64,000 bases of DNA from an uncultured Acidobacteriota bacterium. GTDB taxonomy: Bacteria > Acidobacteriota > UBA6911. Numbering within the stretch: position 1 is the first letter of the stretch; each line of letters opens with the position of its first letter. Of this stretch, positions 38,558 through 61,252 are shown one piece after another. The notes beneath the pieces were generated by a model. That model did not search any database and had not been told where the DNA came from. It saw nothing but the letters and a program-made list of their open reading frames with translations. Location: positions 62,519 through 126,518 of the forward strand of contig CAWHCF010000032.1 of the NCBI GenBank assembly GCA_963827655.1. The letters are read 5' to 3'. The position numbers and the translations under genes were made by a program.

Positions 38558-38650
38558 GTCGCCAAGGGATTTGTCAGATCCGCGGATCCCCGCCACCCAA
38601 AATCCTCAGATCCGAGCAAGTGGATACTATTGCAACCTGTTTTCCTCGAT
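38558..38650 (-). repeat. Degenerate copy of the ADOP-associated palindromic element
   Basis: GTCGCCAAGGGATTTGTCAGATCCGCGGATCCC...CCGAGCAAGTGG...CCTGTTTTCCTC resembles the reverse complement of 55320-55423. Confidence 0.45.
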
Positions 38651-38690
38651 GCGGCTGGCATACAATATTGAAACATCAACCGTTCATCAA

Positions 38691-41106
38691 ATGCGCGACC
38701 TGTGGAAGGACCTTACCCTCGCCTCCCGAATGCTACTCAAAACTCCCGCTGTGACGATTGCGGTCATTGCGACCCTGGCCGTCGGAATCGCAGCCAACAG
38801 CGTGGCTTTCGCACTGATGAACAGCATTCTTCATCCGCCCGCTGCCCGTCCAGGAGCCGGAACAGCTCGTGCGCATATACTCGAGCTTCGCGAGTGGCTT
38901 CCAGCACTTCACCGTCTCGTATCCCGATTATGCCGACATCCAGCAGTTAACCGCGGTATTCTCGGCGGTCATGATCGATGAACCGGCTGCAGTCAGCCTC
39001 GGCGTGTTCGGCGCGAACGAACGCCTTTGGGGCAGCAGCGTTTCGGGCAACTATTTCTCCGTGCTAGGCGTTAGGCCCGCGCATGGTCGTTTCTTCAGCC
39101 CTGAGGAAGCGTCCGGATCCGGAGCCAATCCGCTGGTCATTCTTAGCTACGGACTCTGGCAGCGTCGCTTCAACGGAAGCCGCGACGTTCTTGGCGACAC
39201 GGTGACCCTGAATGGAAAGCTATGCACGGTCATTGGAGTTGCTCCCAAGGATTTCCACGGCATTCACCTTGGGCTGCGCCCGGAGTTGTGGCTGCCCATC
39301 AGTATGGCAGGCCGAGACCGCGGGGCCAGGCAATATTTCGCTACCGCGCGCCTGCGGCCCGGCGTCAGCGCCAATCAGGCGAGGGCGTCCCTCGACGTGC
39401 TCTGGCGCCAGCTGCAAGAGACGTATCCTGATACCAACAAAGGAATCCGCTTCAGTATGCTCCCGGAGTCAGAGGGTAGGGTCCATCCAATGGCCCGTGG
39501 TGATCTCTTAGGCTTCTCAGGAGTGCTGATTGCGGTCGCGGCGCTCGTGCTCGTTGTCGCATGCGCCAATGTTGCCGGTATTCTGCTGGTGCGTGCGATG
39601 TCACGTCGCAAAGAAATCGGCACACGCCTGGCTCTGGGAGCCACACGAGGTCGTATCATCCGGCAGTTTCTGACCGAGAGCACTCTCCTTTCGGTTCTCA
39701 GCGGGGGGGTCGGCCTCACTCTTGCCTGGGTGGTGACGAGAGTCATGGGCGCGATCCATTTTCCAACGCGCGTTCCCATATACTTCGACATCGGACTCGA
39801 TGACCGCGTACTCGGCTTCAGCTTTGCGGTCACAGTTCTTGCCGGCGTCTTGTTCGGGTTGAGCCCGGCGCTCGAGGCTTCAAAGTCTGATCTGATGACT
39901 ATGCTGAGGGAGAGGGAGGGTGCGGGAGGGTGGCGACGGACGCGACTGCGCAACACTCTCGTTATGATTCAAGTGGCGCTTTCGACGGCGTTGCTCATCG
40001 GCGCCGGTCTCTTCTTGCGAAGCCTGCAGAACGCACACCGGGTGAATGTGGGCTTTGATCCTGAAGGTGTCGTGCGGACGTCTCTGGACCTGGGACTCCA
40101 GGGATACCAGGCCGTGGAGGCCAGGCAGTTCTGGAGACGCCTCGTCGAACGGCTTGCTGCGCTCCCTGGCACAGAGTCGGTAAGCCTCGCGAGCGCGGTT
40201 CCCTTCGAGCTGAACATCACGACGCTGGAAATCGCCCCGGAAGGGTACCAGGCCATACCGGATGGAGGTTGGTCCTCCGTCGATTTCGCGATTGTCCACT
40301 CGGGCTATTTCGAGACCTTACGTATTCCACTTCTCGCGGGAAGAGACTTCACCCAAAGGGATACCGAATTTTCTCGCCCGGTAGTCATCGTGAACGACGT
40401 GCTGGCGCGGCAATTCTGGCCCGGGAGGAGCGCCGTGGGGAAGAGCATCACGACGAGTGGGGGAAGATTGCGCGAAGTGATCGGAGTGGCAAGACGCGGC
40501 AAGTACCTCACCCTCGGCGAGCAGCCTAAACCCTATGTCTACTTTCCTCTGGGCCAAAGCGACGCGCGCGCCATGACTGTTCTGATAAGGGGCGCCGGCA
40601 ACGCGAACACCGTGCTTCAGAAGGTGCGCGACACGATACGAGCGATGGACAACACCGTGCCGCTCTACAATGTCAGCTCGATGTCCGAGCACGTCAACTT
40701 TGCGCTCCTTCCAGCCAAGGGCGGAGCCATAGCACTCAATTTCGTGGGCATGGTCGCGTTAACACTCATGGCGTTGGGCCTCTACGGGACGATGGCCCAC
40801 ATGGTCAGTCGGCGAAGATTTGAGATCGGCGTGCGGCGCGCTCTGGGGGCTCAGGACGGCGACGTTATCGTGCTGGTGGTAACACAGGCCACGCGTCTCG
40901 TGCTGGCTGGTGTGGTCGTGGGAATCAGTTTTGGCCTCGCCGGCTCGCGCCTCCTCGGAAGCCTGCTCTACGGCGTTGAAGCGGCGGATCCCCTCGTCTT
41001 CGTCCTCGCCCCAGTCGTGCTCGCGCTCGTCAGTGTCCTCGCTGCCTGGATACCCACGTATCGGGCAGTTCGCATCGATCCTGCCAGGGCCTTGCGGTAC
41101 GAATGA
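38691..41106 (+). CDS. ADOP-type duplicated MacB/FtsX permease without N-terminal prefix domain; apparent +1 frameshift near 38827
   Basis: MRDLWKDLTLASRMLLKTP..TLAVGIAANS, VSGNYFSVLG, ACANVAGILL..R.KEIGTRLALGA, second repeat RRFEIGVRRALGA, C-terminal DPARALRYE. Confidence 0.9.
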
Positions 41107-41199
41107 GTTCTCCGATCGGCTCACACGGTCGGGTGCCGTTTCATTTTCGGTTCTGGGACAGGCGCAGAGTGAGGGTTGAATCCTCTCTGAAATGCGTGT

Positions 41200-41358
41200 G
41201 TCCTTTGTTGACCCGTTATCAATGGACACAGTCCGGTACGCGGAGAACTGGCGGTAAACGGGCGATTCCTTGAGGATACCAACCCGCCACCTCTACGTTG
41301 TGCGCGGCTGAAATCAGGTGACCGGGCGCCCACGCGTGGTTTCTAAACCCGTGGCGAT
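41200..41358 (+). repeat. ADOP-associated palindromic element copy A
   Basis: CAATGGAC..AGTCCGG..CGGAGAACTGGCGG...TGAGGATAC..CCCGCCACCTCTACG...CAGGTG...TAAACCCGTGGCGA, colinear with 59071-59211. Confidence 0.6.
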
Positions 41359-41367
41359 TTGCCCGGG

Positions 41368-42627
41368 CTATCGGTTCTGCCGGGCTGGAGGAACTCGCGT
41401 CGTCAGAGCGGATCCCGTCCCGGGCAGCCAAGACTGCGTGGCCTTCGCTGCATCGGAGACGTGCTTTGTCCTGGCGTCCGTGAACCAGCCGTTATGGATC
41501 GCCAGCATGATCACGAGCAGGCCGACGGCCGAGGCCGTGGCGATAGAGAAACCGCGCTGCACGCTGGTTCTGGCCGCATAGGCGCCGATCGCCGCTGGGA
41601 TCAGGACCCAGCCGATAGAGCCGATCGCAAAGAAGACGCCGACGGCGCGGCCGAAGAGCGCCACAGGAACGTGCTGGCTCAAGAGCGCGATCAAGGTGGG
41701 GAATACCGGCCCGAACACGAGCCCGGTCCCGATCACACCGATGATTGACAGTCGGCGGCTTCCGCTCACGACCATTGTCCCGAGCAGCACGATGCAGCCG
41801 ACCGCCAGCCAGGTGAGCACGAGACTCTCGCTTCCCGGCGGCAGGGTGAAGGCCGCCAGGAGCCGGCCGACCATGAAGGTCAGCCAGAAAAACGTCAGCA
41901 TGGCCGACGCGCGAGACTCACTGAGTCCCTGGTCGCTCAAGTAGGTCGTGGCCCAGGCCGCCACTGAGGACTCCAGCGGTCCGTAGAAGCAGAGCGCGAT
42001 TCCCAGGAGCCAGACCATCGGGTTGCCGAGCAAGTCCCTCGCGCCGGCGATCATGCCGATGGCGGGATCAAGGCTGTCGTGTTGGACGTGGAGGGCGATA
42101 GCGGCCGGGGGCAGGATCAGGAGCGCCAGAGCCACAAGGCCAGCGGTATAGCCTGCCTGCCGGATCAGCCCCGCCGCCAGCAGGGGGGTTACCAGTGCTC
42201 CGAGGCCGAAGAAGACGTTCAACAGGTTGAAAGCGAACGCCGGGCTGTGCGTTCCCTGCAGGGCGGGCGCGGTGAGGACGTTCGTGACGTTCACCAGGAC
42301 CGACCAGCCGCCGCTCAGCAGGAGGACCCCCAGCAAGGCTTGCCCGTACCGCCGGGCCAGGGCCAGCACAACCATGCTCCCGGTCATCACGCCGCCGCCG
42401 ACGACTATTACCCAACGCTTGTCGATCGCGTCGGTGGCGAACCCGGCAGCCAGGATGGCCGGACCCATGATGAAGCCGAACAGCGAGACCAGCCCTCCAA
42501 CGCGCGTCTCGTCGATCGCCAGTCGCTTGGCCAGCGCGAGCTTGATGCTTCCCAGGATCGCCACGCCGAAGCCTCCGACCATCCCGGCGAGGACGACCAT
42601 CCATTGAAACTCTCCCCAGCTGGTCAT
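41368..42627 (-). CDS. MFS transporter
   Basis: About 12 hydrophobic helices, motif-A-like GFATDAIDKR, FFGLGALVTP, GPVFPTL. Confidence 0.85.
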   Translation of the reverse strand: MTSWGEFQWMVVLAGMVGGFGVAILGSIKLALAKRLAIDETRVGGLVSLFGFIMGPAILAAGFATDAIDKRWVIVVGGGVMTGSMVVLALARRYGQALLGVLLLSGGWSVLVNVTNVLTAPALQGTHSPAFAFNLLNVFFGLGALVTPLLAAGLIRQAGYTAGLVALALLILPPAAIALHVQHDSLDPAIGMIAGARDLLGNPMVWLLGIALCFYGPLESSVAAWATTYLSDQGLSESRASAMLTFFWLTFMVGRLLAAFTLPPGSESLVLTWLAVGCIVLLGTMVVSGSRRLSIIGVIGTGLVFGPVFPTLIALLSQHVPVALFGRAVGVFFAIGSIGWVLIPAAIGAYAARTSVQRGFSIATASAVGLLVIMLAIHNGWFTDARTKHVSDAAKATQSWLPGTGSALTTRVPPARQNR

Positions 42628-42721
42628 GCGTGTTGGTCCGTTCGTACCAGCTTCAGCCTGACTGCGATTGACATTGGCGGCATCTTCCCGTCCGTTCCAC
42701 GCGTCCGGTCTTCGAATCGGC

Positions 42722-43564
42722 TCAGGGACCTACATACCCTTTGGCGGCGAGCATCTCGGCTACCTGGGTACCCTTCGTGGCGCAGGGCTGGAGCTCGACT
42801 GGCACAACGACGAGCGCTTCGGCCGACTCGCCGTAGGGCCCCCGGGCGAGGAGCTCGCCGCCCGGTCCCACCGCGAGCGAGCAGCCGATGCACTTTCGGC
42901 CGCGCCACGCGCCCCCATTAATCCTGCCGACGTTGCTCACGCCCACAACCGTCATGTCGTAGAGCCGTGCCAGGGTCGTGTAAGGGACCGTCCAGGTCTC
43001 CCCGTACGGCTCCTTCTGGTTGTCGTGGTCGGCCTCCACTGCCCAGGCCGAGGGGGAGACGAGGAGGCGCGCCCCCATACGGCCGAGCGAGTGGCCAAGC
43101 GCCAGTGAGCTCGAGAAGTTGTCGGCGCAGATTGTCAGGCCGATTCTTCCCAGTGCTGTTTCGGCGACGGAAAGGCGGTCGCCGGTCGCATAGAGATCGT
43201 GAGCAATCTCAAGTTCGTTGATCTTTCGGTGCTTCACCAGGATTTCGCCTTCGGGCGAGACGACGACGGCGCTATTGTAAATTCGCTCGCCGTCGCGCTC
43301 GGTGAGGCCCGCCGCGACGTAGATTCCCGCCTGTCGTGCTGCTCCTGCCAGGAGATCGCTGTGCCGGCCTGGGATAGGCTCGGCCAGCCGTCGGGCCTCG
43401 GGGTGCGCCCAGCCGGCGTCCAGACACTCGGGCAGGACCACGATGCGGCAACCCTGGGCGGCGGCGTCCTCGACCATGCGGACCGCGCGGCGGAGATTCT
43501 CGTCACGACACCCACCTTCGACGAGCATCTGGCCCATCGCCAACTTGAACCGGATGTTGTTCAT
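42722..43564 (-). CDS. Carbon-nitrogen hydrolase (nitrilase superfamily)
   Basis: E-K-C triad in VLPECL, KHRKIN, TICAD; IYNSAV. Confidence 0.9.
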   Translation of the reverse strand: MNNIRFKLAMGQMLVEGGCRDENLRRAVRMVEDAAAQGCRIVVLPECLDAGWAHPEARRLAEPIPGRHSDLLAGAARQAGIYVAAGLTERDGERIYNSAVVVSPEGEILVKHRKINELEIAHDLYATGDRLSVAETALGRIGLTICADNFSSSLALGHSLGRMGARLLVSPSAWAVEADHDNQKEPYGETWTVPYTTLARLYDMTVVGVSNVGRINGGAWRGRKCIGCSLAVGPGGELLARGPYGESAEALVVVPVELQPCATKGTQVAEMLAAKGYVGP

Positions 43565-43933
43565 CGGTCAACCGAGCGCGGCGCCTCGCCGCGCTCCTCC
43601 GGAAAACAGCCGCCAGAATACTCGATCCGCGCCGCCGTCGCCATCATTTCGGCGGACGACATGTTTTGCGGAGATTCTGCAAATTGCGACAACTCTGGCT
43701 TCTTCGATAGTGTAAGATCCAGTCGAGTTGCCATAAAAGCCAGGAAAAAGCGTCGTCGACGATGAGTACAACGCCCCACAGATTTTTTTGACGGGACACG
43801 AAGCCACTTGCCCGCGAAGACATTTTCGAGCCGCCGGTCGAACGACCGGAGACAGTCGAAGCCGTGAACTCCCATGCGCGCCGCGCTCGTGAATCCTCAT
43901 CCATGATCCCCGGAATCCAACAGGAAGGCTGAC

Positions 43934-48845: not shown

Positions 48846-51473
48846 TCATTCACTCCGCAGTGCGACGATCGGATCAGCATGGGCCGCCCGTCGAGCCGGT
48901 CCATAGCATGCAATCAGGGCGGCAAGCAGAAGGAGCACCGCAACGGCTAGGAATGTCAATGGATCGCGCGCGCTAACGCCGAACAACAGAGCGTCGAGCA
49001 CACGTGTCAGCCCCATTGCACCGCCAAGGCCAGTGGCAACACCGATCAGCGCCAAGCCGAGTCCCTGGGCCAGTACGAGCTTGAGCAGATTGCCAGGTCG
49101 CGCACCCAAAGCCATGCGCACGCCAAACTCCTGGCGGCGAAGAGTCACCAGATACGCGAGCACACCGTAGATCCCAATCATGCCGAGTGCCAGCGCCACG
49201 CCGGCCAACAGTGCAAGCACCCATGTTCTGATCCGAGCGGGGGCCGAACTGTTCTCCACCCAGTCCCGCATAGATCGGTAGCCATAGGCCGGCAAGTTCG
49301 GATCGATCTCCCAAAGTCTTTCTCTGATCAGGGTGGCGGCGGCTTCGGGGGATCCATCGTGGGTCCGCACGAACAAGGCGAAGACTGCAAAGCGACCGCC
49401 CTGCGATATGGGAAGGTAGACAACGTGGCCTGGAGGATCGGTGATGTTTTTCATGCGAACGTCGCCGACTACCCCTATAACCTCCCCCACAGCGTCATTA
49501 ACTCGGAGTGGACGGCCGACCGGATCTTCGGCGCCGTACAGGCTCCGGGCGGCCTCCTGGCTGAGTACGAACACACGCTGTCTGTCGGGCCCATCCTCTG
49601 GGCCGAAGACGCGGCCGCGAAGAACGGGGATGCGAAGAGCCACAAAGAAGCCGGCATCCACGGACCGCCACTCGCAGTCAATTGATTGCCCCACCGACGG
49701 GTCAGACGGTGCGACCGCGGCAGCACTGCCCAGCGTGCGGGATCCGGGACCGAGTGGGATGGCGCTGGAGACCCCGGCGGAGCTCACGCCGGGCGCAGAC
49801 CGGAGTGCGTCGGTCAAGCGAGACAGCAACGCCGAGATCGCCGCTCCAGTCTCGTATCTCGGTCTTGGCAGTGCGATCCGCGCCGTGAGCACGTTGTCCG
49901 GATCGACGCCCAGCGAAACTTGTTGTAGACGCGCAAAGCTCTGTATCAGCAGCCCTGCTCCTATCAGAAGCACAGTTGCCAGCGACACCTGCGCGACCAC
50001 CAGCAGCGCCCGTAGGCGCGTGCGCGGTGCGGGTTGCGAAGTTCGGCCCGCTTGGTGCAGCGAGTCAAGACTCCGCATCCTCCCAAGTTGCACAATTGGA
50101 GCCATTCCGAAAAGCAGACCCGTGATGAGGGATATTCCGAGGGCAAAACCGAGCACGTTCAGATCAATAGAGACCTTGTCCGCCCGAGGAACGATCTCGA
50201 CGAGGTATTGTCGGGCGATCCGAACCATAGCGCCACCTAAAGCAACGCCGAGTGCTCCACCGGCGAGCGACAGCAGCACGCTTTCGGTAAACAGTTGCCG
50301 TGAGATCCGGGCTGTTCCAGCACCAAGGGCTGCGCGGATAGCGATCTCCTTGCGCCGAGCCTCCGCCCGCGCCAGTAGCAAGTTTGCCACGTTCGCGCAG
50401 GCGATGAGCATTGCCATTCCAACCGCTCCAAGCAGCACGGTCAGCGCGGTGCGAATCTCCAGTGGAATGAGCCACTGCAGGAGTGGCACGACTGCGACAC
50501 TCCAGCCCTTGTTCGATCCGGGGAACTGCCGCTCCAGTTCGCGAGCGATCGAAAGCATGTCCGCCCGCGCGTGCTGTAATGTGAAACTGGGCCTGAGGCG
50601 TCCGATCACGGTGTACTGGCGATTCCCCCGATTCGCATTCGGATCGATGATCAGTGGAACCCAGAGATCAGGCGCCGATGGAACCGTAAGCCCTGGGGAC
50701 GCTACACCGATAACGGTATAAGGCTCTCCATTCAGGAGTAGCTTGCGACCGACCACGTCACTATCCTGGCCAAACCGTCGTTTCCAGAACACCTCGCTCA
50801 AAACGGCCACTCGATGCTGACCGGGCCGCTGCTCGTCTTCGACGAACCAGCGGCCCATACGCACTGTCGTTCCCAGGACGGGCAGAAAGGACGAGGTAGC
50901 TGCGATGCCTTCGAGTCGCTCCGGCTCACCGTCCCCGGTCCAGTTCGGGGCATACCCCTGGAAGGCCGCAAGTTCCAGGCTGCGCGCCTGGTCCTTCCAT
51001 GACAGATAGTTCGGCACCGACGCGGAAAAGGTCCACAGATTACGGCTTGGATTGGTTTCGTAAATGCGCACGAGTTGATCCGGCTCGCGCACCTGCAGCG
51101 GGCGGAGCATCACGGCGTGGACAATGCTGTACATGGCAGTATTGGCGCCGATGCCAAGAGCCAGCGTCACTACGGCGACCGTCGTGAATCCCGGGTTCTT
51201 CCGCAATATGCGGGTAGCGTAGCGCAGATCCTGTGCCAGACTCTCCACTGAAGGAAGGCTTCTTCGATCTCGATACTTTTCCTTGGTTGACTCGATACTA
51301 CCAAATTTTAGGAGTGCGTCCCGACGCGCATCCTCGGGATTCATGCCGGCCCGGAGATTATCTTCAATATGGAGTTGCAGGTGGCTCTCAATTTCTTCAG
51401 ACAGCTCGCGATCGCGCCACTCCTTTTGAAACAGGCCGGCAAACCGCAGGAAGAAAGCACGTATTCGTTTCAT
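48846..51473 (-). CDS. ADOP-type duplicated permease with N-terminal helical prefix (module 1)
   Basis: Prefix RELSEEIESHLQL....GMNPEDARRDALLKFG; DLRYATRILRKNPGFT; two FtsX repeats; DPIVALRSE; start overlaps PadR stop (TGATG). Confidence 0.92.
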   Translation of the reverse strand: MKRIRAFFLRFAGLFQKEWRDRELSEEIESHLQLHIEDNLRAGMNPEDARRDALLKFGSIESTKEKYRDRRSLPSVESLAQDLRYATRILRKNPGFTTVAVVTLALGIGANTAMYSIVHAVMLRPLQVREPDQLVRIYETNPSRNLWTFSASVPNYLSWKDQARSLELAAFQGYAPNWTGDGEPERLEGIAATSSFLPVLGTTVRMGRWFVEDEQRPGQHRVAVLSEVFWKRRFGQDSDVVGRKLLLNGEPYTVIGVASPGLTVPSAPDLWVPLIIDPNANRGNRQYTVIGRLRPSFTLQHARADMLSIARELERQFPGSNKGWSVAVVPLLQWLIPLEIRTALTVLLGAVGMAMLIACANVANLLLARAEARRKEIAIRAALGAGTARISRQLFTESVLLSLAGGALGVALGGAMVRIARQYLVEIVPRADKVSIDLNVLGFALGISLITGLLFGMAPIVQLGRMRSLDSLHQAGRTSQPAPRTRLRALLVVAQVSLATVLLIGAGLLIQSFARLQQVSLGVDPDNVLTARIALPRPRYETGAAISALLSRLTDALRSAPGVSSAGVSSAIPLGPGSRTLGSAAAVAPSDPSVGQSIDCEWRSVDAGFFVALRIPVLRGRVFGPEDGPDRQRVFVLSQEAARSLYGAEDPVGRPLRVNDAVGEVIGVVGDVRMKNITDPPGHVVYLPISQGGRFAVFALFVRTHDGSPEAAATLIRERLWEIDPNLPAYGYRSMRDWVENSSAPARIRTWVLALLAGVALALGMIGIYGVLAYLVTLRRQEFGVRMALGARPGNLLKLVLAQGLGLALIGVATGLGGAMGLTRVLDALLFGVSARDPLTFLAVAVLLLLAALIACYGPARRAAHADPIVALRSE

Positions 51474-51814
51474 CAACGTTCCTCTCCAGGGGACAGGAAA
51501 CGTGCCATGATCCCAGTTGTTTGCTCCCATTGACGCGCTTCCTTCTCAAGCTGCTTCCGCCCGGCTCGTGTCAAGCGATAGTATTTGGCTTTGCGATTGT
51601 TATCAGAAACTCCCCATTCCGAGGAGATGTAACCCTCCTGCTCCAGTTTGAGAAGCGCCGGATACAGGGTACCGTAGTTCACCAACAGCAAACCGCCGCT
51701 GGTTTGCTCGATCCGGCGAGCGATTCCGTAGCCGTGGAGAGGCCCCATTGTTTCGAGGGTCCTCAGCGCCATAAGGGCGAGCGTCCCTTGCCAAACGTCC
51801 GCCTTCTTATCCAT
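51473..51814 (-). CDS. Acidobacterial-type PadR regulator (module 1)
   Basis: QGTLALMAL, HGYGIARRI, GTLYPAL, EWGVSDNNRKAKYY. Confidence 0.92.
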   Translation of the reverse strand: MDKKADVWQGTLALMALRTLETMGPLHGYGIARRIEQTSGGLLLVNYGTLYPALLKLEQEGYISSEWGVSDNNRKAKYYRLTRAGRKQLEKEARQWEQTTGIMARFLSPGEER

Positions 51815-51824
51815 CACTCTCCCT

Positions 51825-51876: not shown

Positions 51877-51965
51877 TAGGATCACAAACCGATATCACGT
51901 CCTGCACACGAAAACCCCTGCTTTGGATTGCCGGCGCCCGTCCGTTCGGCGGCCACCTCGATGGC

Positions 51966-52089
51966 GGATGGATAGTCGGCAAATCGGAAAGTGGAGCGGA
52001 GCCGAGATGGGTCCTTGCGGATGCCCGCCACTTGTACGGTTTGCCCCTAAAACGTCAACTTGACTTGATTTTGATAAACATTAGGCGAC
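51966..52089 (+). repeat. ADOP-associated palindromic element copy B
   Basis: ATAGTCGGCAAATCGGAAAGTGGAGCGGA...GGATGCCCGCCACTTGTACGGTTTGCCCCTAAAACGTCAACT...TAAACATTAGGCGAC. Confidence 0.75.
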
Positions 52090-52150: not shown

Positions 52151-52207
52151 TGTTGTTGACATTCGACACCAGCGCGCGATAACATGTTGTCGAGATTCGA
52201 CAACATG
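52151..52207 (+). promoter_or_regulatory. Promoter and twin operators, module 2
   Basis: TTGACA(52156)-N18-TAACAT; TGTTGA-CAT-TCGACA over -35; perfect CATGTTGTCGA-GAT-TCGACAACATG (52183-52207) ending in the start codon. Confidence 0.75.
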
Positions 52208-52540
52208 AGCAAGAGCGCCAGGCTTGACGTACTACAAGGCACCCTCGACCTACTGATCCTCCGGACGTTGCAGCTAGGCGCTATGCACGGATGGGCAATC
52301 TCGGAGCGGATACAGCAAGCCTCGCAGGATGTGTTGCGCGTCAATCAGGGTTCTCTGTATCCCGCACTTCATCGGTTGGAACACCAGGGGTGGATTGCGG
52401 CGGAATGGGGGGTTTCCGAACTTGGCCGACGAGCGCGATTTTACACACTGACGACGGCGGGAAAGAAACAACTGCAGCGGGAAACCGAGATGTGGGCCAG
52501 GTTCGCGGGCGCGATCGCTCAGGTTCTGGATATGGCCTGA
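52205..52540 (+). CDS. Acidobacterial-type PadR regulator (module 2)
   Basis: LQGTLDLLIL, HGWAISERI, NQGSLYPALHRL, EWGVSELGRRARFY. Confidence 0.92.
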   Translation: MSKSARLDVLQGTLDLLILRTLQLGAMHGWAISERIQQASQDVLRVNQGSLYPALHRLEHQGWIAAEWGVSELGRRARFYTLTTAGKKQLQRETEMWARFAGAIAQVLDMA

Positions 52541-52541
52541 T

Positions 52542-55181
52542 ATGAATTGGAACGACATCAGACTTCGGCTTCGTGCGCTGTTTCAGCACAACCGTGTTGA
52601 GGATGAGCTCGAAGAGGAAGTGAACACCCATCTTGAGATGCAGGCGAGGAAGAATCAAAATCAAAACCGAGGAATAGATCCAGCCGAAGCGTCTCGCCTC
52701 GCGCGCATTCAGTTTGGCAGCCTTGACGTGACAAAGGAGGAATGCCGGGATGCGCGCGGCACACGCCTGATCGAAGACGCGCTGGCTGACGTGCGTTACG
52801 CGGTCAGGAGCTTTTGGCGCACGCCAGTATTTGCCCTGACAGTTGTCGCTACTATAGCGTTGCCCCTCGGCCTGAATACGGCCCTCTTCACCATTTTCAA
52901 CGCCTATGTTCTCCGACCGGTCGCGGTCAGCGATCCGAATAGCCTCTATCAATACTCATGGACTGACCGGCGTGGAGCAACGCACTCGTTCTCGTGGGCG
53001 GAATATGAGAGCTTCCGAGATGGTAACCCAGTGTTTTCCGAGGTAGCGGCCACCAGGCCGATCTTCGCTCGCGTTGAGGGCCGGCCGCTTTTCGGCGAAC
53101 TGGTAACGCCTAACTACTTCCGCATGCTTGGCGTGGGAGCGCTTTCTGGTCGGACATTTGTAGCGGAAGACGGCGCGTCTGCAGGATCGGCCCCTGTTGT
53201 TGTCCTTAGTCACTCCGCCTGGCAGAACAAGTTCGGTGGCAACAACGACCTGCTCGGCAAGACAATCGTGATTCGCGGCCATCCTATGGAAGTGATTGGG
53301 ATCACAAAACCCGAATTCAGTGGCCTGAACGCAAAGACACTCGACTTCTGGGTGCCAATTACCATGGCGGACCAGTTGGAGGGTGGACCGAGTCTCTTCG
53401 GTCCCGATCATCCGAACCGACTCGATATTGCCGGTCGGCTAAGACCGGGGCTCACTTCAAGGCAGGCTGAGGCAGCCCTCCTTGTGTGGGCGCTACATCG
53501 GACGGACGGCAAGGGAGAGGATGAGAAAGCCGTGGGTGTGGTTCTCGAATCGCGTGCGACTTCGATTCGCCTGACGCCTCAACTGATTGCAGCTGCTATC
53601 CCTGTCGTTGCGGCTTTCCTGCTGGTGCTACTCATGGCCTGCGCAAACATCGCAAGCATGATGCTTGCGCGTGCCATTGGCCGACAGCGTGAAATCGGGT
53701 TAAGACTGTCGTTAGGCGCGGCTCGCATTCGACTTGTTCGCCAACTATTGACCGAGAGTTTAGTCCTGGCGGTGCCAGCCGCCATGGCCGGTGCTGCGCT
53801 CTCGGAGTTGGCGCTTCGCGTCGGTCAACGGATCTTGTTCTCAGCCATGCCGCCGGACCTTGCTCAGATCGTCACCATACCATCACTGGGATTCGATATT
53901 CGCCTATTCGGGTTCTTGATCGCTATCGCCGCTTCCTCTGCCACCCTGTTTGGGCTGGCACCCGCACTTCAAGCCACCCGCCTCGATCTTGCGCAAGTTA
54001 CCAAAGGCGAGTTTGCGCCCGACATCCGACCAACCAGACTCCGCAACGCGTTAGTGATTTTGCAGATCACCGTGTGCGTGATGTTGCTTACCGTGGCAGG
54101 GCTGGCCCTGCGCGCCAGCTCACGGATGAACAGGCAGGAGGTGGGCTTTACGACAAGGGGAGTCTTGGAAATGGATATCAACGAGAAGTACCGGTCCCAA
54201 CTCCTCTCCCGGCTGGCGGAGCAACCCGTAGTTGAAGGGATTGCGTCGGCGCAGTCCATCCCACTAAACGGAATGCTGTTGACTGTACCAATGATCTCGG
54301 GCGAAGAAACTGCAGTTCGTGGCTCGTACAACTTCGTCTCACCCACATTCTTCCAGCTTCTCGGCATTCCCATTTTGAGCGGCCGTAACTTTAGCGTGGA
54401 AGAAGCCCAGGTGGGAGCAGCCGTCGCTATTGTGAGCCAGAAGACGGCGTTACGTTTCTGGCCCGGGCAGCAGCCGCTGGGCCAAACTCTTCGGCTAGCT
54501 CCAGATCCCCGCGTCGCACCGGGCTCAAGGGTACGCCACTTTCCATCAGTACGAATAATCGGCGTAGCAGCGGATATCGTCAGTTGCTGTTTCACGGTCG
54601 GCATGGACCCTACTCTCCTGTATTTGCCTACGACCTCCACCGCCGCGGGGAACAGCCTGCTGGTGCGTGTTCACGGCAATTCGGAACAGGCGCGCCGCAA
54701 CCTGGATGCGGATTTCTCCGCGATCAGCCCCAGTGCAGTCGACCAGATTCATACGCTGGAGACATTCCGGGCGGCAGGAATATTCCCATTCCAGATCGCG
54801 GCGGGTGTCTGCACGGTGATCGGTGGGCTCGCCCTCTTCCTTGCGGTGTCAGGAGTCTATGGCGTGCTCTCGTACTCAGTCTCCCAGCGAACGCGGGAGA
54901 TAGGAATCAGAATGGCGATTGGGGCCCCGGCAAGTGCGGTCGCGCGTCTGGTGCTAACGCAATCGATGAGGCTCGCCCTTATCGGTGGCGTCGCTGGCTC
55001 GCTCCTGGCATTGGCAGTATGGCGCATTCTGGCCTCCCGACTGTTCTTCATACAGGCATTTGACGGCATTGCGTTCTTCATCGGAGTGCTGGTACCTCTG
55101 GCCGCTGCCGCTTTGGCAGCGTATGCGCCCGCGCGACGGGCTATCCTGGTCGATCCTACAACTACCCTCAGATACGATTGA
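52542..55181 (+). CDS. ADOP-type duplicated permease with prefix (module 2)
   Basis: RLRALF..RVEDELEEEVNTHL...EASRLARIQFG...KEECRDARG; two FtsX repeats; DPTTTLRYD. Confidence 0.92.
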   Translation: MNWNDIRLRLRALFQHNRVEDELEEEVNTHLEMQARKNQNQNRGIDPAEASRLARIQFGSLDVTKEECRDARGTRLIEDALADVRYAVRSFWRTPVFALTVVATIALPLGLNTALFTIFNAYVLRPVAVSDPNSLYQYSWTDRRGATHSFSWAEYESFRDGNPVFSEVAATRPIFARVEGRPLFGELVTPNYFRMLGVGALSGRTFVAEDGASAGSAPVVVLSHSAWQNKFGGNNDLLGKTIVIRGHPMEVIGITKPEFSGLNAKTLDFWVPITMADQLEGGPSLFGPDHPNRLDIAGRLRPGLTSRQAEAALLVWALHRTDGKGEDEKAVGVVLESRATSIRLTPQLIAAAIPVVAAFLLVLLMACANIASMMLARAIGRQREIGLRLSLGAARIRLVRQLLTESLVLAVPAAMAGAALSELALRVGQRILFSAMPPDLAQIVTIPSLGFDIRLFGFLIAIAASSATLFGLAPALQATRLDLAQVTKGEFAPDIRPTRLRNALVILQITVCVMLLTVAGLALRASSRMNRQEVGFTTRGVLEMDINEKYRSQLLSRLAEQPVVEGIASAQSIPLNGMLLTVPMISGEETAVRGSYNFVSPTFFQLLGIPILSGRNFSVEEAQVGAAVAIVSQKTALRFWPGQQPLGQTLRLAPDPRVAPGSRVRHFPSVRIIGVAADIVSCCFTVGMDPTLLYLPTTSTAAGNSLLVRVHGNSEQARRNLDADFSAISPSAVDQIHTLETFRAAGIFPFQIAAGVCTVIGGLALFLAVSGVYGVLSYSVSQRTREIGIRMAIGAPASAVARLVLTQSMRLALIGGVAGSLLALAVWRILASRLFFIQAFDGIAFFIGVLVPLAAAALAAYAPARRAILVDPTTTLRYD

Positions 55182-55262
55182 GGTCGCCACTCAGGGGCAG
55201 ACCTTGAGGTCTGAGGTGCGCGAGTTGTCGCTTCAGGCACTGCCGGAGCGGATAGCTCCTCA

Positions 55263-55423
55263 CGCCGCAGTGTTTACTAACCCAGTTCACTTGGACGAGT
55301 AGTCGGCTTATCGGACAAGTGGAGGAAAACGGGACGTTTCTTTCGGACGCCCCGCCAGTTGTCCGGTTTGTCCGTTAACCAGGAGTTAGCAGGGACTCGC
55401 GGGATCGGTAAATCCTTGGCGAC
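55263..55423 (+). repeat. ADOP-associated palindromic element copy C (most complete)
   Basis: CGCCGCAGTGTTTACTAACCC...TAGTCGGCTTATCGGACAAGTGG...CCCGCCAGTTGTCCGG...GGGATCGGTAAATCCTTGGCGAC; CGGACAA/TTGTCCG and TTTAC/GTAAA pair. Confidence 0.75.
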
Positions 55424-55505
55424 TTATCAGGACTGATGGCGGGCGCTCGCCCCGTCCTGCGTCGTGGCAGTTCGATTCCTATCAGGGTCCCCCCGAGGCA
55501 CCTTA

Positions 55506-55563: not shown

Positions 55564-55575
55564 AGGAGAACTCCG

Positions 55576-55905
55576 ATGCCAGGCCGCCGCGTCACGTTAC
55601 TTCAAGGTACGCTTGATCTCCTCATTCTGAAGGCCCTTTCTGCCGGTGCGCTCCACGGGCTCGGCGTGTCGCGCCGCATCAAGCAGATCACTGGCGGCAC
55701 GTTCGTCGTGCAACCGGGCTCACTGTTCCCTGCGCTCCATCGTCTGGAGGAAGCCGGCTGGCTCACATCCGACTGGCACCCCTCCGAGAACAACCGACGT
55801 GCGAAGTACTACACGCTCACAAAGGCCGGACGCCGACAACTGGGCGAAGAAGCCACACAGTGGAATCAGATTTCGCTGGCAATTGCGCGCGCGATGAAAG
55901 CATGA
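55576..55905 (+). CDS. Acidobacterial-type PadR regulator (module 3)
   Basis: LLQGTLDLLILKAL, HGLGVSRRI, QPGSLFPALHRL, SENNRRAKYY. Confidence 0.92.
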   Translation: MPGRRVTLLQGTLDLLILKALSAGALHGLGVSRRIKQITGGTFVVQPGSLFPALHRLEEAGWLTSDWHPSENNRRAKYYTLTKAGRRQLGEEATQWNQISLAIARAMKA

Positions 55906-56017
55906 GGTGATAGTGACCACCGGACGCTGCGGTGTTTCGGTAATCAGAGGTTCAGCAGGGTCGCCCGTCGACTAAGGGCAACCGAGGGTTCGACCACAGA
56001 AAAACTGGAGACACGTC

Positions 56018-58657
56018 ATGGCCCGCCTTTTCAGTCTCTGGGGCAATCTCGTGCACCGGAACCGGGTCGATCGCGATCTCGACGAGGAGCTGCATGCCGC
56101 ATTCGAGTTGCTGGTCGACGAGAAAATCCGAGCAGGCATGCATCCGGACGATGCCCGTCGCGCCGCTCGACTGGAGCTGGGGAGCCTGGAATCCTTGAAG
56201 AGCGAGGTCCGCGACGCGCGTGCGGGTGCCAGGGTGGACACCCTTTTCCAGGACATCCGCTACGCGCTGCGGCTGTTCCGACGAGCCCCCGGCTTTACGG
56301 CCGTCGCGGTCGTGACGCTGGCCCTGGGCATCGGCGCCAACGCCGCCATCTTCGGCGTGGTGAAATCGGTGTTGCTCGACGCGCTGCCCTACGCCGACGC
56401 CGACCGCCTGGTGCGCGTGTACGGGCGCTTCCTCCTCAGCACGCAGGAAAGCGCCCTGCTGAGGGCCAGCCAGGTCCACACTATCGCTCAGCGACAGCGG
56501 TCATTCGAGAGCCTCGCCGCATTCGACTCCGCGCGCGATGCCGTGTACGGAAGTGATGACGTCCCACGTATCGTGAGGATCGCGTGGGTGGAGCCCGGAC
56601 TCTTCAAGACCCTGGGTGTCCCGGCTGCGCTCGGGCGAATCTTCCACGACGACGATCGCGCCAAAGGCCACGTGCCTGTCAGCGGCGGGGAGAGCGGTCC
56701 CGACACTGCTCGTGTCGTGCTGTTGGCCCATGACGCTTGGCAGGGGCTATTCGCGGGTGACCCGGGTATCGTTGGCCGAGATGTCCGCATCAACGGGATC
56801 CCGCGTACGGTGATCGGCGTCCTGCCGCGCGGCTTCGTGGGACTCAGGGGCCAGGCCGACTTCTACTTTGCATTCGATCTCACCCCGGCCCTCGCCAGCG
56901 GTGCGGGCTGGCTCGGCCTAGTCGGCCGCCTGAAGTCGGGCATGACCCTGGAAGCCGCGCGGCGCGAGATCGCCGCAATCTGGGCCGACGAGCACCCGCA
57001 GGAGAACAGCGGCGTGAGCATCTCGGCAATGCCACTGCGTGATGCGATGGTCGGCGGCACCCGCACGCCGCTCCTCGTGCTGCTGGCGAGCGCCGCTCTG
57101 GTCCTCCTCATTGCCTGTGCGAACCTCGCCGCAGCCCTGCTATCCCGCGGCCTCTCCCGGCGCAGAGAGTTCGCCGTCCGCGTCGCGCTCGGTGCTGGGC
57201 GCCGGCGTCTCGTACGGCAGCTGCTCACCGAGAGCGCCGCGCTCGCCCTGGCCGGCGGCGCGGCTGGGTTGCTGGTCGCCCAGTCGATGCTGTCCCTCCT
57301 GCACGGCCTCGCGAGACCCGTGCTGCCGGCCTACACCCAATTGTCGCTCGATCCGGGCGTGGTGCTCGTCACGGCGGTTGTTGCTTTGTGCACCGGCCTG
57401 GCGTTTGGCGTGGTGCCGGCGCTCTCCATCGGGCGCTCGGACGCGCAGGGTACGCTGCGCGACGAGGCGCGGGGCGCGAGCGAGGGGCGCCGCCCGCGCC
57501 GCCTGCGCGGCGTGCTGGTGGCGGCGCAGCTAGCGCTCTGCGCCAGCCTGCTCGCGGGTGCCGGCTTGCTGGCGCGCAGCTCATGGGAGATGGCGACGGC
57601 ACCGCTCGGCTTGGATCCGGCCGGCGTCCTGACCGCGAGGTTCCGGCTATCGATACCTGACTACCCGACACTTGAGACACGCGCCCGCTTCCACGAGCAA
57701 GTCGCGGAGCGGCTGCGGCTCCTCCCCGGCGTGGACGCCGTCGCGATCGCGAACAAGGTTCCCACGGTCGAAACCCCGAGACGGGATCCCTTCACCATCG
57801 AAGCGGCGCTCCCGACCGACGCGCAGCTCTCCGTCGTGTATGCGAGCGTGTCGGACGACTACTTCCGCACGCTCCGGATACCGCTCCGGCAGGGACGCAC
57901 GTTCGACGCGTCGGACCGCGATGGCGCGCCGCCGACCGCTGTCATCAGCGAGAGCCTGGCGCGCCAGCATTGGCCCGCCGGCGAGGCGCTCGGTGCTCGC
58001 ATTCGCTTGGGTGGGCGCCTGGTGACGGTCGTCGGCGTCGTCGGCGACGTGCGCAACGACCTCGCCCGGCCTGAGGCCGAACCGATGACGTATAGGTCAC
58101 ACCGGCAGGAATCGACGCAAAGGTTCTGCGTCCTGCTGCGCACGCACGGCGATCCGCTCGCCCTCGTGAGACCCCTCCAGCGAGAGGTGGCGGCGCTCGA
58201 CCCCTCATTGCCGGTCCAGCAGGCCATGACGCTCGATGCGGCGGTCGGCGAAGGGCTCGCCGCTCGGCGGCTTCCGGTGATGCTGATGACCGCGTTTTCT
58301 GCCCTGGCGCTGCTCCTCGCGTCGGTCGGCGTCTACGGCATGTTCGCCAGCATGGCGGCGGCGCGGGAGCGGGAGTTCGGCGTTCGCATGGCGCTCGGCT
58401 CGCGCCCGAGCGCGATTGCCGGGCTGATGCTGCGGCAGGGCGTCGGCTGGATGGCCGTCGGCCTGTCGGGTGGTGCCCTCGGCATCACGCTGGTCGTACA
58501 GCTTCTGCGCGGCATGCTCTATGGAGTGCCGCCGTTCGACCCGATCGCCCTCGGCAGTGCCGTCGCGATCCTGGTGGGTTGCGCGACGGTCGCACTGCTC
58601 ATCCCAGTCCGCCGCGCCATGCGCGTGGACCCAATGGTCGCGCTCCGCGCCGAATGA
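56018..58657 (+). CDS. ADOP-type duplicated permease with prefix (module 3)
   Basis: RVDRDLDEELHA....GMHPDDARRAARLELG; QDIRYALRLFRRAPGFT; two FtsX repeats; DPMVALRAE. Confidence 0.92.
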   Translation: MARLFSLWGNLVHRNRVDRDLDEELHAAFELLVDEKIRAGMHPDDARRAARLELGSLESLKSEVRDARAGARVDTLFQDIRYALRLFRRAPGFTAVAVVTLALGIGANAAIFGVVKSVLLDALPYADADRLVRVYGRFLLSTQESALLRASQVHTIAQRQRSFESLAAFDSARDAVYGSDDVPRIVRIAWVEPGLFKTLGVPAALGRIFHDDDRAKGHVPVSGGESGPDTARVVLLAHDAWQGLFAGDPGIVGRDVRINGIPRTVIGVLPRGFVGLRGQADFYFAFDLTPALASGAGWLGLVGRLKSGMTLEAARREIAAIWADEHPQENSGVSISAMPLRDAMVGGTRTPLLVLLASAALVLLIACANLAAALLSRGLSRRREFAVRVALGAGRRRLVRQLLTESAALALAGGAAGLLVAQSMLSLLHGLARPVLPAYTQLSLDPGVVLVTAVVALCTGLAFGVVPALSIGRSDAQGTLRDEARGASEGRRPRRLRGVLVAAQLALCASLLAGAGLLARSSWEMATAPLGLDPAGVLTARFRLSIPDYPTLETRARFHEQVAERLRLLPGVDAVAIANKVPTVETPRRDPFTIEAALPTDAQLSVVYASVSDDYFRTLRIPLRQGRTFDASDRDGAPPTAVISESLARQHWPAGEALGARIRLGGRLVTVVGVVGDVRNDLARPEAEPMTYRSHRQESTQRFCVLLRTHGDPLALVRPLQREVAALDPSLPVQQAMTLDAAVGEGLAARRLPVMLMTAFSALALLLASVGVYGMFASMAAAREREFGVRMALGSRPSAIAGLMLRQGVGWMAVGLSGGALGITLVVQLLRGMLYGVPPFDPIALGSAVAILVGCATVALLIPVRRAMRVDPMVALRAE

Positions 58658-58744
58658 GGCTCCACGATGATCATGCAAGCTCAAACCATTTGAACGGCAG
58701 GTACGGCCAATTCCAGATCAGGCTTGCGGCCGAAGAGAAGTGAC

Positions 58745-58903
58745 GATGAAGGCCGAACGATCCAGGTGTATGTCGGACTCGTCAAATCACCCACACTCGA
58801 AATCCGAAAGCTCGGGCCACACGATCGAGGCATGGTTGGCTTGTGGACGGGCAACAACAGCGACGGCGACTTCGCGAATCTCCGCATCATCCAGATGAAG
58901 TGA
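58745..58903 (+). pseudogene. 3' remnant of a beta-rich protein gene
   Basis: Manual translation DEGRTIQVYVGLVKSPTLEIRKLGPHDRGMVGLWTGNNSDGDFANLRIIQMK* reads like the C-terminus of a ConA-like/DUF1080-type fold; no N-terminal part is present. Confidence 0.5.
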
Positions 58904-59049
58904 CGGCGCGGTGAGGCTGGTACGGCTGCAACGGCGGCTTCAAAAGACGGCGGTACGCCGCGACCGCAGGGCAAGTTGGCATGCGCTTGCGAGCGTGGTG
59001 GGCCCTGGCGCTGCCTTGCTCTGCCGTCTGATCGATCCCGTGTAATGCA

Positions 59050-59211
59050 GTTGTGTTTACTCATCCGGCTCAATGGACGTATAGTCGGCTTACCGGAGAA
59101 GTGGGGCGGAGTTGGAAGGTACCGTGAGGATGCTCCGCCACTTGTACGAGTAGCCCGTAATACGTCCAGGTGGCCAGGATCTACGCAGAAGATTGGTAAA
59201 CATTAGGCGAC
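59050..59211 (+). repeat. ADOP-associated palindromic element copy D
   Basis: GTGTTTACTCATCC..CAATGGACGTATAGTCGGCTTACCGGAGAAGTGGGGCGGA...CCGCCACTTGTACGAGTAGCCCGTAATACGTCCA...GATTGGTAAACATTAGGCGAC. Confidence 0.78.
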
Positions 59212-59307
59212 AAGGGTGGAGTAATCCGAGAAAGTCCAGTCATTCTTCCGATTCCCGACGGCCATCCGCCGCATAACCCTCGCTGCGCTCCGCCGCTACG
59301 GAATTGC

Positions 59308-60630
59308 TCACCTTGACTTCGCTGGCGAGGGCGTGGAGCCAGTTGGGGCACCAGCGGCTGCCCGATAGATAACCCTCCCCTCCCGCACTGTATACCGTAC
59401 CGTCGCAAACGTTCGAACGTTCTGTGAGGGATCGCCACTCAGGACGACGAGATCCGCAACGTACCCTGGGACAATCCGTCCGCGTTGTTTCGATTCACCG
59501 AACCGCTCGGCGGGCGCCGTTGTCAGAGAAGCAAGAATCTGGCGAAAACTCATTCCGGATTGGGCCATAAGAGCATATTCATCGCTCGGATCGTAGTCAT
59601 TCATATAGCCGACATCAGTTCCGAACAGGATGACTCCGCCGAAGGCGAGCCAGGATCGCAGTTGGCCGGCGCCGCGTTCGGTGAACTGGTCGCGGTTTGA
59701 ATCACGGTCGTGACGCAGTTCGTACTTCCAGAGTTTCAAAGTTGGTATGAGGGCGACCTGCCTCTCCTTCATCGCCGCCAGGACCGTCTCATCCCATGGT
59801 TCTGACTGCGGCGTCGTGTGCACCACTACGTCCGCTCCAGCGCGAACTGCTGCCAGTAAGCCCTCGCGTTTCGTCGGGTGTGCGAAGACAGGTTTGCCTC
59901 TGCGGTGGGCTTCATCCGCCGCGGCTCGCATGGCGGTCTCCGGAATAGCTGCAAACGGGGGCCACCAGGTTACCGCATACAGCTTGATCCCATCGGTTCC
60001 TGCATCGAGTAGCTTCTTCGAAGCTCCCAGCGCTTCGGGAGCATCCGCGACCTCCGGAGACTGGACCTTCATGAATCCCAAGGCATCCATCAATTGCGGC
60101 GGCGTGCCACTGAAAGCGCCCTTCGGGTACAGAATCTCACCCGTCGAGCGGATTTTCGGACCATGTATTTCGCCGGACTCAATGCGGTCGCGAAGCAGCC
60201 GCGTATTTTCCCACATCGACCCGGTATCGAACACGCTCGTAAACCCGTATTGCGTAAGCATTGCCTGAAGCTGCCCGCTGAGCTCGGCAGCCGGAATGTT
60301 GGCCGCGTCCGCCCATTTTCTCTCCATGAAGTGAACGTGGCTGTTCCAAAAACCTGAGATAATTGTCAGTCCAGAACAATCCAGAATCTGGGCGCCCGAT
60401 GGTATCTGTATGGACCCCCTGCGGCCCACCGCAGCAATCTTGCCGTCTCGGACGACAACGACGCCATCGCGGACCGGATTCTCGGTCGGACTCACATAAA
60501 TCGTCCCGCCGCTCAGAACTAGTTGCGCTTCTGTGATGGAGCGGGGTTGGCCGAAGATCGACTGGCCGAAGAAGCACAGAATAATAGCCAGCGCGTGGGT
60601 CTGGCAGAGAACCGGTCTCTTTCGCATCAT
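59308..60630 (-). CDS. Exported amidohydrolase family protein
   Basis: VVVRDGKIAAVG, SGFWNSHVH (HxH), DGIKLY, VFAHP, VVHT, FGTDVG, GRIVPGYVADLVVL. Confidence 0.9.
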   Translation of the reverse strand: MMRKRPVLCQTHALAIILCFFGQSIFGQPRSITEAQLVLSGGTIYVSPTENPVRDGVVVVRDGKIAAVGRRGSIQIPSGAQILDCSGLTIISGFWNSHVHFMERKWADAANIPAAELSGQLQAMLTQYGFTSVFDTGSMWENTRLLRDRIESGEIHGPKIRSTGEILYPKGAFSGTPPQLMDALGFMKVQSPEVADAPEALGASKKLLDAGTDGIKLYAVTWWPPFAAIPETAMRAAADEAHRRGKPVFAHPTKREGLLAAVRAGADVVVHTTPQSEPWDETVLAAMKERQVALIPTLKLWKYELRHDRDSNRDQFTERGAGQLRSWLAFGGVILFGTDVGYMNDYDPSDEYALMAQSGMSFRQILASLTTAPAERFGESKQRGRIVPGYVADLVVLSGDPSQNVRTFATVRYTVREGRVIYRAAAGAPTGSTPSPAKSR

Positions 60631-60725
60631 CACATATACGCTTTCGGTTGGTGTCTTTGTTCCCGGATTTTGTGAACGGTGGCGGGCGATCCAACCAGTT
60701 CCAACAGTGTCGAGATAGCTCAATC

Positions 60726-60823
60726 CTGGGCGGTTTTCGGCGATCTACTGAGAATTGCTGGTTATCCATCCAAGTGGGTGGCAGCATCGGTAAACACTAG
60801 GCGACTAGGATTTACCAATCCCC
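60726..60823 (+). repeat. Truncated palindromic element copy E with end-to-end junction
   Basis: CTGGGCGGTTTTCGGCGATCTACTGAGAAT resembles 41248-41277; then ATCGGTAAACACTAG-GCGA-CTAGGATTTACCAAT (60786-60819). Confidence 0.6.
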
Positions 60824-61250: not shown

Positions 61251-61252
61251 CA

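Follow-up and report, generated by a model that had tools for sequence, protein, structure and literature searches.

At its base, the hairpin of an integron attC site carries two boxes, R'' (RYYYAAC) and R' (GTTRRRY), with near-invariant AAC and GTT triplets, and clusters of attC sites that lack an integrase are known as CALINs. REPINs are paired inverted repetitive extragenic palindromic (REP) sequences mobilised by RAYT. The element described here resembles each of these in part. It is a nested-palindrome repeat that recurs in a 64,000-nucleotide stretch of DNA from an uncultured Acidobacteriota bacterium (hereafter the window; positions 62519-126518 of contig C32 in an 8.18-Mb, 53-contig assembly, labelled G000, that is 90% complete), where Pfam identified its neighbours as PadR genes, ADOP-type MacB_PCD/FtsX permeases, an amidohydrolase and an MFS gene. 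Soil Acidobacteriota hold very large paralogous permease, receptor and kinase families whose growth and movement are unexplained, and an interpretation made earlier from the letters of the window (the sequence-only reading) had proposed that the repeats may be recombination sites through which permease modules accumulate as cassettes.

We find that the repeats form a real family of non-coding, nested-palindrome DNA elements of ~160-250 bp, dispersed at low to moderate copy number in the intergenic DNA of several acidobacterial lineages. The interpretation that we favour, tentatively, is that they are a dispersed non-autonomous palindromic repeat, similar in build to REPINs and to MITEs (miniature inverted-repeat transposable elements), whose copies may act as recombination points at the edges of accessory modules. 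No description of the repeat was found in the literature on acidobacterial MITE/REPIN repeats, on attC sites and integron cassettes, or on duplicated orphan permeases, and it is apparently undescribed.

An iterated nhmmer profile converged on 17 non-overlapping matches in the whole genome (E < 1e-3), and a covariance model was built from nine full-length copies of G000. In the window, this model recovered four main copies with E values of 6e-34 to 1.3e-18, all on the + strand and thus in a single orientation, and gave no match across the first 38 kb, both as the sequence-only reading had stated. The first is a full copy (41189-41358; 89.8 bits, E 1.3e-18, also matched by nhmmer) that sits between an ADOP gene (38869-41106) and the MFS gene converging on it (41368-42627, minus strand). 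The second (51930-52089; 92.6 bits, E 3e-19; alignments A1 and A2) has no recognisable 5' outer arm and separates diverging PadR genes at 51473-51817 (minus strand) and 52184-52540. The third, again full length (55258-55423; 133.1 bits, E 8.7e-29; repeat families D4 and D17), begins 77 nt past the stop of the ADOP gene at 52542-55181 and ends 153 nt ahead of the PadR gene at 55576-55905. The fourth (59041-59211; 155.1 bits, E 6e-34; fold of -60.6 kcal/mol; inverted repeat I18) is likewise full length and lies between the ADOP gene at 56018-58657 and a converging amidohydrolase gene at 59308-60723 (minus strand).

A repeat finder run on the window recovered the shared blocks that had been read in these copies, at 52025-52056, 55352-55383 and 59135-59166, and as a further pair at 55292-55322 and 59074-59104; within the fourth copy, 59074-59104 and 59138-59168 form the internal inverted repeat I18. 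The blocks were also present in a MAFFT alignment of the six copies originally claimed, together with an invariant 3' motif AAA..GGCGA. The two remaining members of that set fared less well. The stretch at 60726-60805 (+ strand), between the start of the amidohydrolase gene and the PadR gene at 60909-61250, retains nothing of the element but the inner hairpin's 3' arm and the 3' outer arm; it appears in alignment A1, and with its weak profile values (nhmmer E 0.26; 3'-arm profile E 0.72) it is plausibly a 3' fragment of the repeat. The supposed inverted copy at 38558-38650 (minus strand) aligned by MAFFT at the 3' terminal motif only, was matched by neither nhmmer nor the covariance model, and is a doubtful remnant. 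A copy outside the original set begins ~30 nt past the stop of the ADOP gene at 61253-63946: the last 25 bases of the window (63976-64000, + strand) match the 5' outer-arm block found upstream of other copies, and the contig end cuts the rest.

In this region the elements bound gene modules. Between the copies at 51930 and 55258 lies a PadR-ADOP module at 52184-55181 (+ strand; Pfam PadR, MacB_PCD and FtsX), and between those at 55258 and 59041 a second one at 55576-58657 (+ strand; Pfam), whose ADOP was not sister to its neighbours in a paralogue tree. The amidohydrolase gene (Pfam Amidohydro_1 and Amidohydro_3) is bounded on one side by the 59041 copy and on the other by the partial one at 60726, which is in turn followed by a third PadR-ADOP module at 60909-63946 (+ strand; Pfam and the window-end sequence) that extends up to the cut copy at 63976.

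In each full element the outer inverted arms pair with each other and enclose an inner hairpin. In G000 the outer arms have the sequences ..GATAGATCC..GTAACGCCGTAGTGTTTAC (5' side) and GGTAAAC..TAGGCGAC.. (3' side), while the inner hairpin consists of two inverted copies of a ~34-bp core, each an imperfect palindrome around a 6-bp centre. The first core, which we call the box, is of the type CACTTGGACGTATA-GTCGGC-TTATCGGACAAGTG and is the most conserved part of the element; because its partner carries a different centre, the fold has a conserved internal loop. In the copy at 55258-55423, where the box match starts at 55287, the cores are located at ~55288-55321 (site A) and ~55352-55387 (the inverted partner, site B). 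The loop between the two cores varies in length and sequence, and the box of G000 has at least three different sequences joined to its right-hand side. Partial, split and mosaic copies exist, as do, in a related clade, an outer-arms-only form of ~115 nt and forms without one outer arm. On contig C34 of G000, two half copies bracket ACT- and PNPOx-domain genes.

The sequence-only reading had described each copy as one long bulged hairpin. This is the case for the copy at 59041-59211 only, the others having partly branched minimum-energy folds. In 23 of 28 copies the strand on which the model lies gave a more stable fold than the complementary one (mean difference 6.5 kcal/mol; Wilcoxon P 4.8e-6), a result that is partly circular since the model was built on that strand's fold; 13 of the 18 copies from other genomes kept the same bias. 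Among the nine G000 copies pairing was not maintained by compensatory changes (62.9% of cells paired, versus 63.0% in shuffles), and these copies paired no better with their own arm than with the arms of other copies, which fits decaying palindromes. RNAalifold found no consensus structure and only 2 pairs in the MAFFT alignment A2, in which the arms are misregistered.

Across G000, the 17 nhmmer matches lie on 10 contigs and represent ~14 independent loci. An ADOP gene was found within 1.2 kb at 4 of these, against the 3.3% of intergenic bases expected (P 9e-4), so that copies are enriched beside ADOP genes. The statement of the sequence-only reading that the elements occur only at the boundaries of ADOP and PadR-ADOP modules and of the neighbouring amidohydrolase holds within the window and fails in the genome, where no ADOP lies near 10 of the 14 loci. 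In a genome with 70 matches to the ADOP model TIGR03434, the association is thus an enrichment and not a rule, and we do not read it as a dedicated permease-capture system. By their Pfam flanks, the other loci fall between MOSC and beta-lactamase-like genes, glyoxalase and PhyH, alcohol dehydrogenase and glyoxalase, NAD-binding and ACT, or PNPOx and hydrolase genes, upstream of a kinase, after a TonB-type barrel gene, and upstream of a PSCyt/DUF1549/DUF1553-DUF1501 pair. Similarity between copies ends at the edges of the element; one pair is 92% identical over 88 nt, and its PadR neighbours do not match each other. In a quick IQ-TREE phylogeny of 46 full-length ADOP paralogues, the seven element-adjacent ADOPs were scattered (7 changes needed, versus a shuffled-label mean of 6.7), showing that the permeases between elements are ancient paralogues and not tandem duplicates.

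The repeat extends beyond this genome. The covariance model matched 9 of the 61 relatives searched at E <= 0.01, with G000 counted, and 7 of 36 other genomes of the same family. Flanking genes in the relatives are mixed: of 23 loci, 4 have PadR or ADOP and ~6 have Ser/Thr kinases or PD40 proteins, and further neighbours include catalase, SecA and proteases. Allowing one mismatch, we found the box pattern in 35 of 137 genomes of the class with 1-7 copies each, a reversed control pattern giving 0-2. When one genome per species was scanned with the pattern, many of the matches listed were metagenome-assembled genomes (MAGs) of Terriglobia, Korobacteraceae, Acidoferrales and Bryobacterales; we estimate that a 16-base pattern would give ~280 chance matches in the 596 Gb covered, and matches outside Acidobacteriota were therefore treated as chance. 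Three closely related Terriglobia MAGs (G137, G138 and G139) gave 18-24 matches to the model each (24 in G137, 22 in G138).

These three genomes share genes at 90-99% nucleotide identity, and allowed us to compare gene order around the elements. G137 has an MFS gene and an aldo-keto-reductase gene enclosed by three elements. In G139 the 1.49-kb MFS block recurs with 99% identity, 1.37 Mb away from the reductase block; in both contexts it keeps its own 3' hairpin, 88% identical and with the same loop. The 1.19-kb aldo-keto-reductase block (94-95% identical) begins in G137 at the base after the element; G138 and G139 have it next to an outer-arms-only palindrome, in surroundings that are syntenic between these two and differ from those in G137. 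On contig C10 of G137, the sequence to the left of one element and that to its right lie at different megabase positions in both relatives, with blocks that end 21-23 nt before the element and start 32 nt after it. At 271.9 kb of contig C2 of G137, the sequence is a patchwork whose blocks, of 0.3-2.4 kb, correspond to five places, and one block ends 10 nt before the element. Overall, 5 of the 8 block ends measured in the trio were within 35 nt of a model boundary, so that the sequence-only reading was not refuted by breaks in synteny lying away from the elements. The arrays bound one or two unrelated genes. Among public soil metagenomes, twenty entries contain 16-40% of the sampled words of the stretch. 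In four soil metagenome runs, no contig joined elements across a module and no circular or deletion junction was seen, in contigs too short to tell; the joints listed had sides of 19-33 letters or other letters between them, and resemble paralogues or other copies.

In the interpretation that we favour, the repeat would act on DNA, probably through a folded single strand, and would be moved in trans by an enzyme encoded elsewhere. Its copies would be preferred points of recombination, which would account for the block ends and would bring them to the borders of accessory gene modules: PadR-ADOP units here, and elsewhere PSCyt/DUF1501 pairs, Ser/Thr kinases, MFS and aldo-keto-reductase genes. 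Copies of this kind would also form the same-orientation arrays. Exchange at the elements may be either site-specific or plain recombination at a dispersed repeat. An old MITE, which the sequence-only reading had itself named as an alternative to its cassettes, is at least as likely as these.

Several observations weigh against this interpretation. The first is orientation. When copies no more than 12 kb apart were paired, with opposite-strand matches at one place collapsed, adjacent copies shared orientation in 16 of 16 pairs (G019, G023, G137, G138 and G139; 10 of 10 if both copies have E <= 0.01), as they did in G000 (4 to 6 of 4 to 6); such uniformity is not predicted by random transposition. 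The second is the split copy at the end of contig C2 of G000, in which a 650-nt insert lies between duplicated half-cores with the junction at the 6-nt centre, and which looks site-specific. The third comes from a model-fitted alignment of 37 sequences, where 117 double changes were counted against 71.7 in shuffles, none of 500 shuffles reaching 117; this excess points to some constraint on pairing across genera, with the reservations that the count is biased because the alignment was fitted to the structure and that a symmetric protein site would produce the same excess. In addition, no clean empty site or target-site duplication could be established, the ends in G000 being too diverged and the flanks of three G137-G139 elements rearranged.

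Finally, the genomes checked showed no consistent link between the elements and a transposase, RAYT or recombinase. RAYT (PF01797, Y1_Tnp) had no match in G137 or G138, the genomes with most copies among those searched, and its one match in G000 is not near any copy. A Xer-like tyrosine recombinase of 303-304 amino acids starts ~110 nt from a box in two MAGs (L043:978-1892 and L046:2138-3049), adjoining a Y2 (IS91-type) transposase in L043. This family is multi-copy elsewhere, with up to 9 identical copies that have no box nearby, and we rejected it as the partner: the box was present at none of 30 orthologous loci, and the gene in none of 15 genomes of the box-rich family f12. An IS110-type element was also considered. 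It occupies the same position beside two copies on two contigs of one Acidobacteriaceae MAG (L053 and L071), which are 96.5% identical in the hairpin part and 99.6% in the insertion sequence (IS) part by our own count from the sequences and a 1703-nt match. With identity differing between the parts and no box at any of 30 related IS110 loci, we rejected the idea that the repeat is the non-coding end (bridge-RNA region) of this IS. IS110 relatives are known to target REP sequences, and the arrangement suggests that the IS110-type element targets the repeat and is not part of it. A Phage_integrase/DUF3489 gene near one G137 copy was found in none of 137 genomes of the class, in a search that had no positive control.

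The alternative that survives best is possible, if doubtful: the elements would be dedicated cassette recombination sites. Here a tyrosine-type recombinase would cross over at the inner core, whose two inverted arms flank the 6-bp centre and which would be presented as a hairpin on one strand, and circular modules carrying one element would integrate at resident elements, giving direct-orientation arrays of unrelated modules with the help of a host or yet unrecognised enzyme. This would explain the orientation of the arrays, which is shared irrespective of gene direction (for example on contig C21 of G023). In a hand count of tandem gene contexts, elements were co-directional with the genes in 11 and antisense in 4, so that orientation is not simply gene direction, and along the large contigs of G138 it flips many times. 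The cassette alternative also fits the bounding of unrelated one- or two-gene blocks, with ancient paralogues as ADOP neighbours, the MFS block that travels with its own 3' hairpin, the reductase block that starts exactly at the element end in G137, the block ends 21-32 nt (G137:C10) and 10 nt (G137:C2) from an element, the junction of the split copy at the core centre, the joining of different right-hand modules at the same box, and the strand-asymmetric folding. Uniform orientation, a block carrying its hairpin and a junction at the core centre are hardly to be expected from random transposition, and the cassette idea thus survives in a generalised, integrase-less form. What remains of the original proposal that permease modules accumulate as cassettes is that same-orientation arrays bound unrelated blocks, that the permeases are not tandem copies, and that in close relatives element-bounded blocks lie in different places with ends near the elements; exclusivity to ADOP has been lost, and no recombinase is consistently linked. 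Against this alternative stand the failure to find an integron integrase above the cut-off (five genomes), a co-occurring recombinase or a likeness to dif beyond that of shuffled sequence, as well as the many solitary copies and the size of the modules, which have their own regulator and promoter-like sites. Moreover, rearrangement at any dispersed repeat would yield similar block ends.

That the elements are cis-acting regulators, working either as structured RNA within untranslated regions or as large operators to which a protein binds, is unlikely. The better folding of one strand and the excess of double changes in the 37-sequence alignment would agree with such a role, as would recurrent positions upstream of PadR-ADOP (G000 and G007) and of a LamG-type PSCyt/DUF1501 pair (G000 and G137), and ~80 nt upstream of the start in at least five paralogues of a 1504-residue DUF7948/SBBP gene. 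However, orientation is not tied to gene direction, copies also lie between converging genes, and half, split and mosaic copies occur. Rfam had no match in the window at gathering scores, and at E <= 1 seven loci gave one chance-level viral match only. Promoter-like sites (5, versus 4.8 expected) and terminator-like sites (14, versus 13.8) were at chance level, with promoter-like sites falling outside the elements and no T-tract terminator after them, and the distribution over 35 of 137 genomes is patchy. The suggestion that the repeats are intergenic remnants of PadR-ADOP units duplicated in tandem, for which speak three elements 95-153 nt upstream of PadR genes in one orientation, is contradicted by neighbouring ADOPs that are not closest paralogues (end branches of ~0.9-1.5 changes per site), by element-to-PadR sequences that are unlike between copies and by the loci far from any ADOP, and is highly improbable.

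If the cassette alternative were correct, several acidobacterial lineages may hold an integrase-less, integron-like form of module assembly, in which a nested hairpin with a recombinase-type core folded on one strand would allow the capture and exchange of circularised blocks at many small chromosomal arrays; we regard this as conceivable and no better than doubtful. The blocks captured would be PadR-ADOP units, PSCyt/DUF1501 pairs, kinases, transporters and reductases, which would provide soil Acidobacteriota with a mechanism behind their large paralogue families, and a dedicated site would amount to a second, integrase-independent cassette system. If the element is no more than a palindrome that moves, it still serves as a marker of plastic regions, and it also seems to cause contig breaks in these genomes. 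In both cases, a conserved hairpin that marks module edges and changes of gene order between close relatives makes the question of how the families grow and move testable.

Further observations concern the surroundings of the copies. Four contig ends of G000 (the ends of C32, C2 and C33 and the start of C27) lie inside or within ~35 nt of a copy, and breaks at copies are also seen in the MAG contigs L047, L085, L096 and G007:C516. The hairpin seems to break short-read assemblies, so that our copy counts are lower bounds, and further copies probably lie in assembly gaps. The + strand of the element tends to be the C-rich strand, orientation-adjusted GC skew being negative at 11 of 13 G000 loci in 50-kb windows and 9 of 13 in 20-kb windows, although the skews are tiny.

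At L010:4600-4761 (G000:C42) and L234:11647-11806 (G137:C2), a LamG-containing PSCyt/DUF1549/DUF1553 gene, with DUF1501 after it, has the element just upstream; the two LamG-type proteins are 42% identical over their full length, versus 35-37% in parts for a paralogue, and the placement may reflect either an old linkage or a repeated association. At L253:3721-8235 (minus strand, G137:C10), there is a member of a multi-copy family encoding 1504-residue DUF7948/SBBP beta-propeller/BACON proteins; in at least five G138 and G139 paralogues, similarity of 76-83% extends jointly over the N-terminal coding part, the 80-nt leader and the element's first part. A second repeat of ~133 nt directly follows element 1 at L234:8451-8592 (G137:C2); it has many copies with 90-95% identity in G138 and G139, and also occurs at block edges. 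In the window itself, the first ADOP frame (38869-41106, 745 amino acids) has an N terminus ~135 residues shorter than those of its neighbours (879-897 amino acids) and is overlapped by a 146-residue frame at 38541-38981 with no Pfam match, which may reflect a frameshift, an assembly error or a truncated gene at 38541-41106. Separate inverted and direct repeats of AAAAAGT-type words at 36990-37175 (families D13, I4 and I12) are unrelated to the hairpin repeat.

The comparison with known systems can now be drawn. With attC sites and CALINs, the elements have in common that they are imperfect palindromes folding on one strand, in one orientation, between unrelated gene blocks, each of which appears to carry its own site at one end, and that close relatives differ in the placement of the blocks; same-orientation sites do separate the modules, as they separate cassettes. 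They differ in that sequence, and not structure alone, is conserved across lineages, that the elements are longer (160-250 bp) and nested, with larger modules that have their own regulators, and that there are many small arrays and solitary copies instead of one platform. The analogy with attC that the sequence-only reading had invoked does not hold at the level of the signature. The aligned copies have ..TAAC-GCC.. at most 5' ends, but GAC or GAT instead of GTT at the 3' end, and read in reverse they give GCCTAAT, GCCAAGG, GCCACGG and GCCTAGT. The published Acidobacteria attC model starts with GCCUAAC, of which AAC is near-invariant (PMC8352920). On the portion of that model compared, the AAC and GTT triplets are not conserved in our elements, and the integron integrase TIGR02249 was not found above its 265-bit cut-off in any of five genomes (G000, G023, G137, G138 and G139; best score 105.7 bits); the integron attC class was thus rejected.

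A likeness of the inner arm to dif, also suggested earlier, was rejected as well, since it is no better than that of shuffled sequence: the best ungapped match to four elements was 12-16 of 28 positions, and shuffles reached it in 462, 497, 383 and 15 of 500 cases. The single dif-like site of G000 lies outside the window (C29:198152, minus strand). A tyrosine recombinase gene ~5 kb from it (C29:203454-204194, in a 439-residue open frame) may belong to an element integrated at dif. In a more general sense, CTX-type attP, other Xer-dependent elements and Acinetobacter pdif modules resemble what we see, with two inverted recombinase-type cores, a hairpin with a partly unpaired centre, and short recombination sites on either side of modules that have no dedicated recombinase close by; the copies here, however, are scattered and not at dif, and the flanking sites are direct, not inverted.

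In their build, the elements come close to REPINs, where two inverted short imperfect palindromes and a spacer make one long hairpin that is intergenic, non-coding and dispersed. They depart from REPINs in lacking a Y1/RAYT gene in G137 and G138, in a copy number of tens and not hundreds, in their additional outer arms, and in the gene-spaced arrays with one orientation. Compared with MITEs and with ERIC- or Correia-type repeats, uniform orientation within arrays sets them apart, as does the lack of a partner IS with the same ends, no long shared flanks having been found among 50 acidobacterial loci. With these repeats they share size, terminal inverted arms, a hairpin formed by the whole element, intergenic dispersal, decayed and partial copies, and an association with rearrangement points; like MITEs, they are small, end in inverted repeats, have no coding capacity and are present in multiple dispersed copies.

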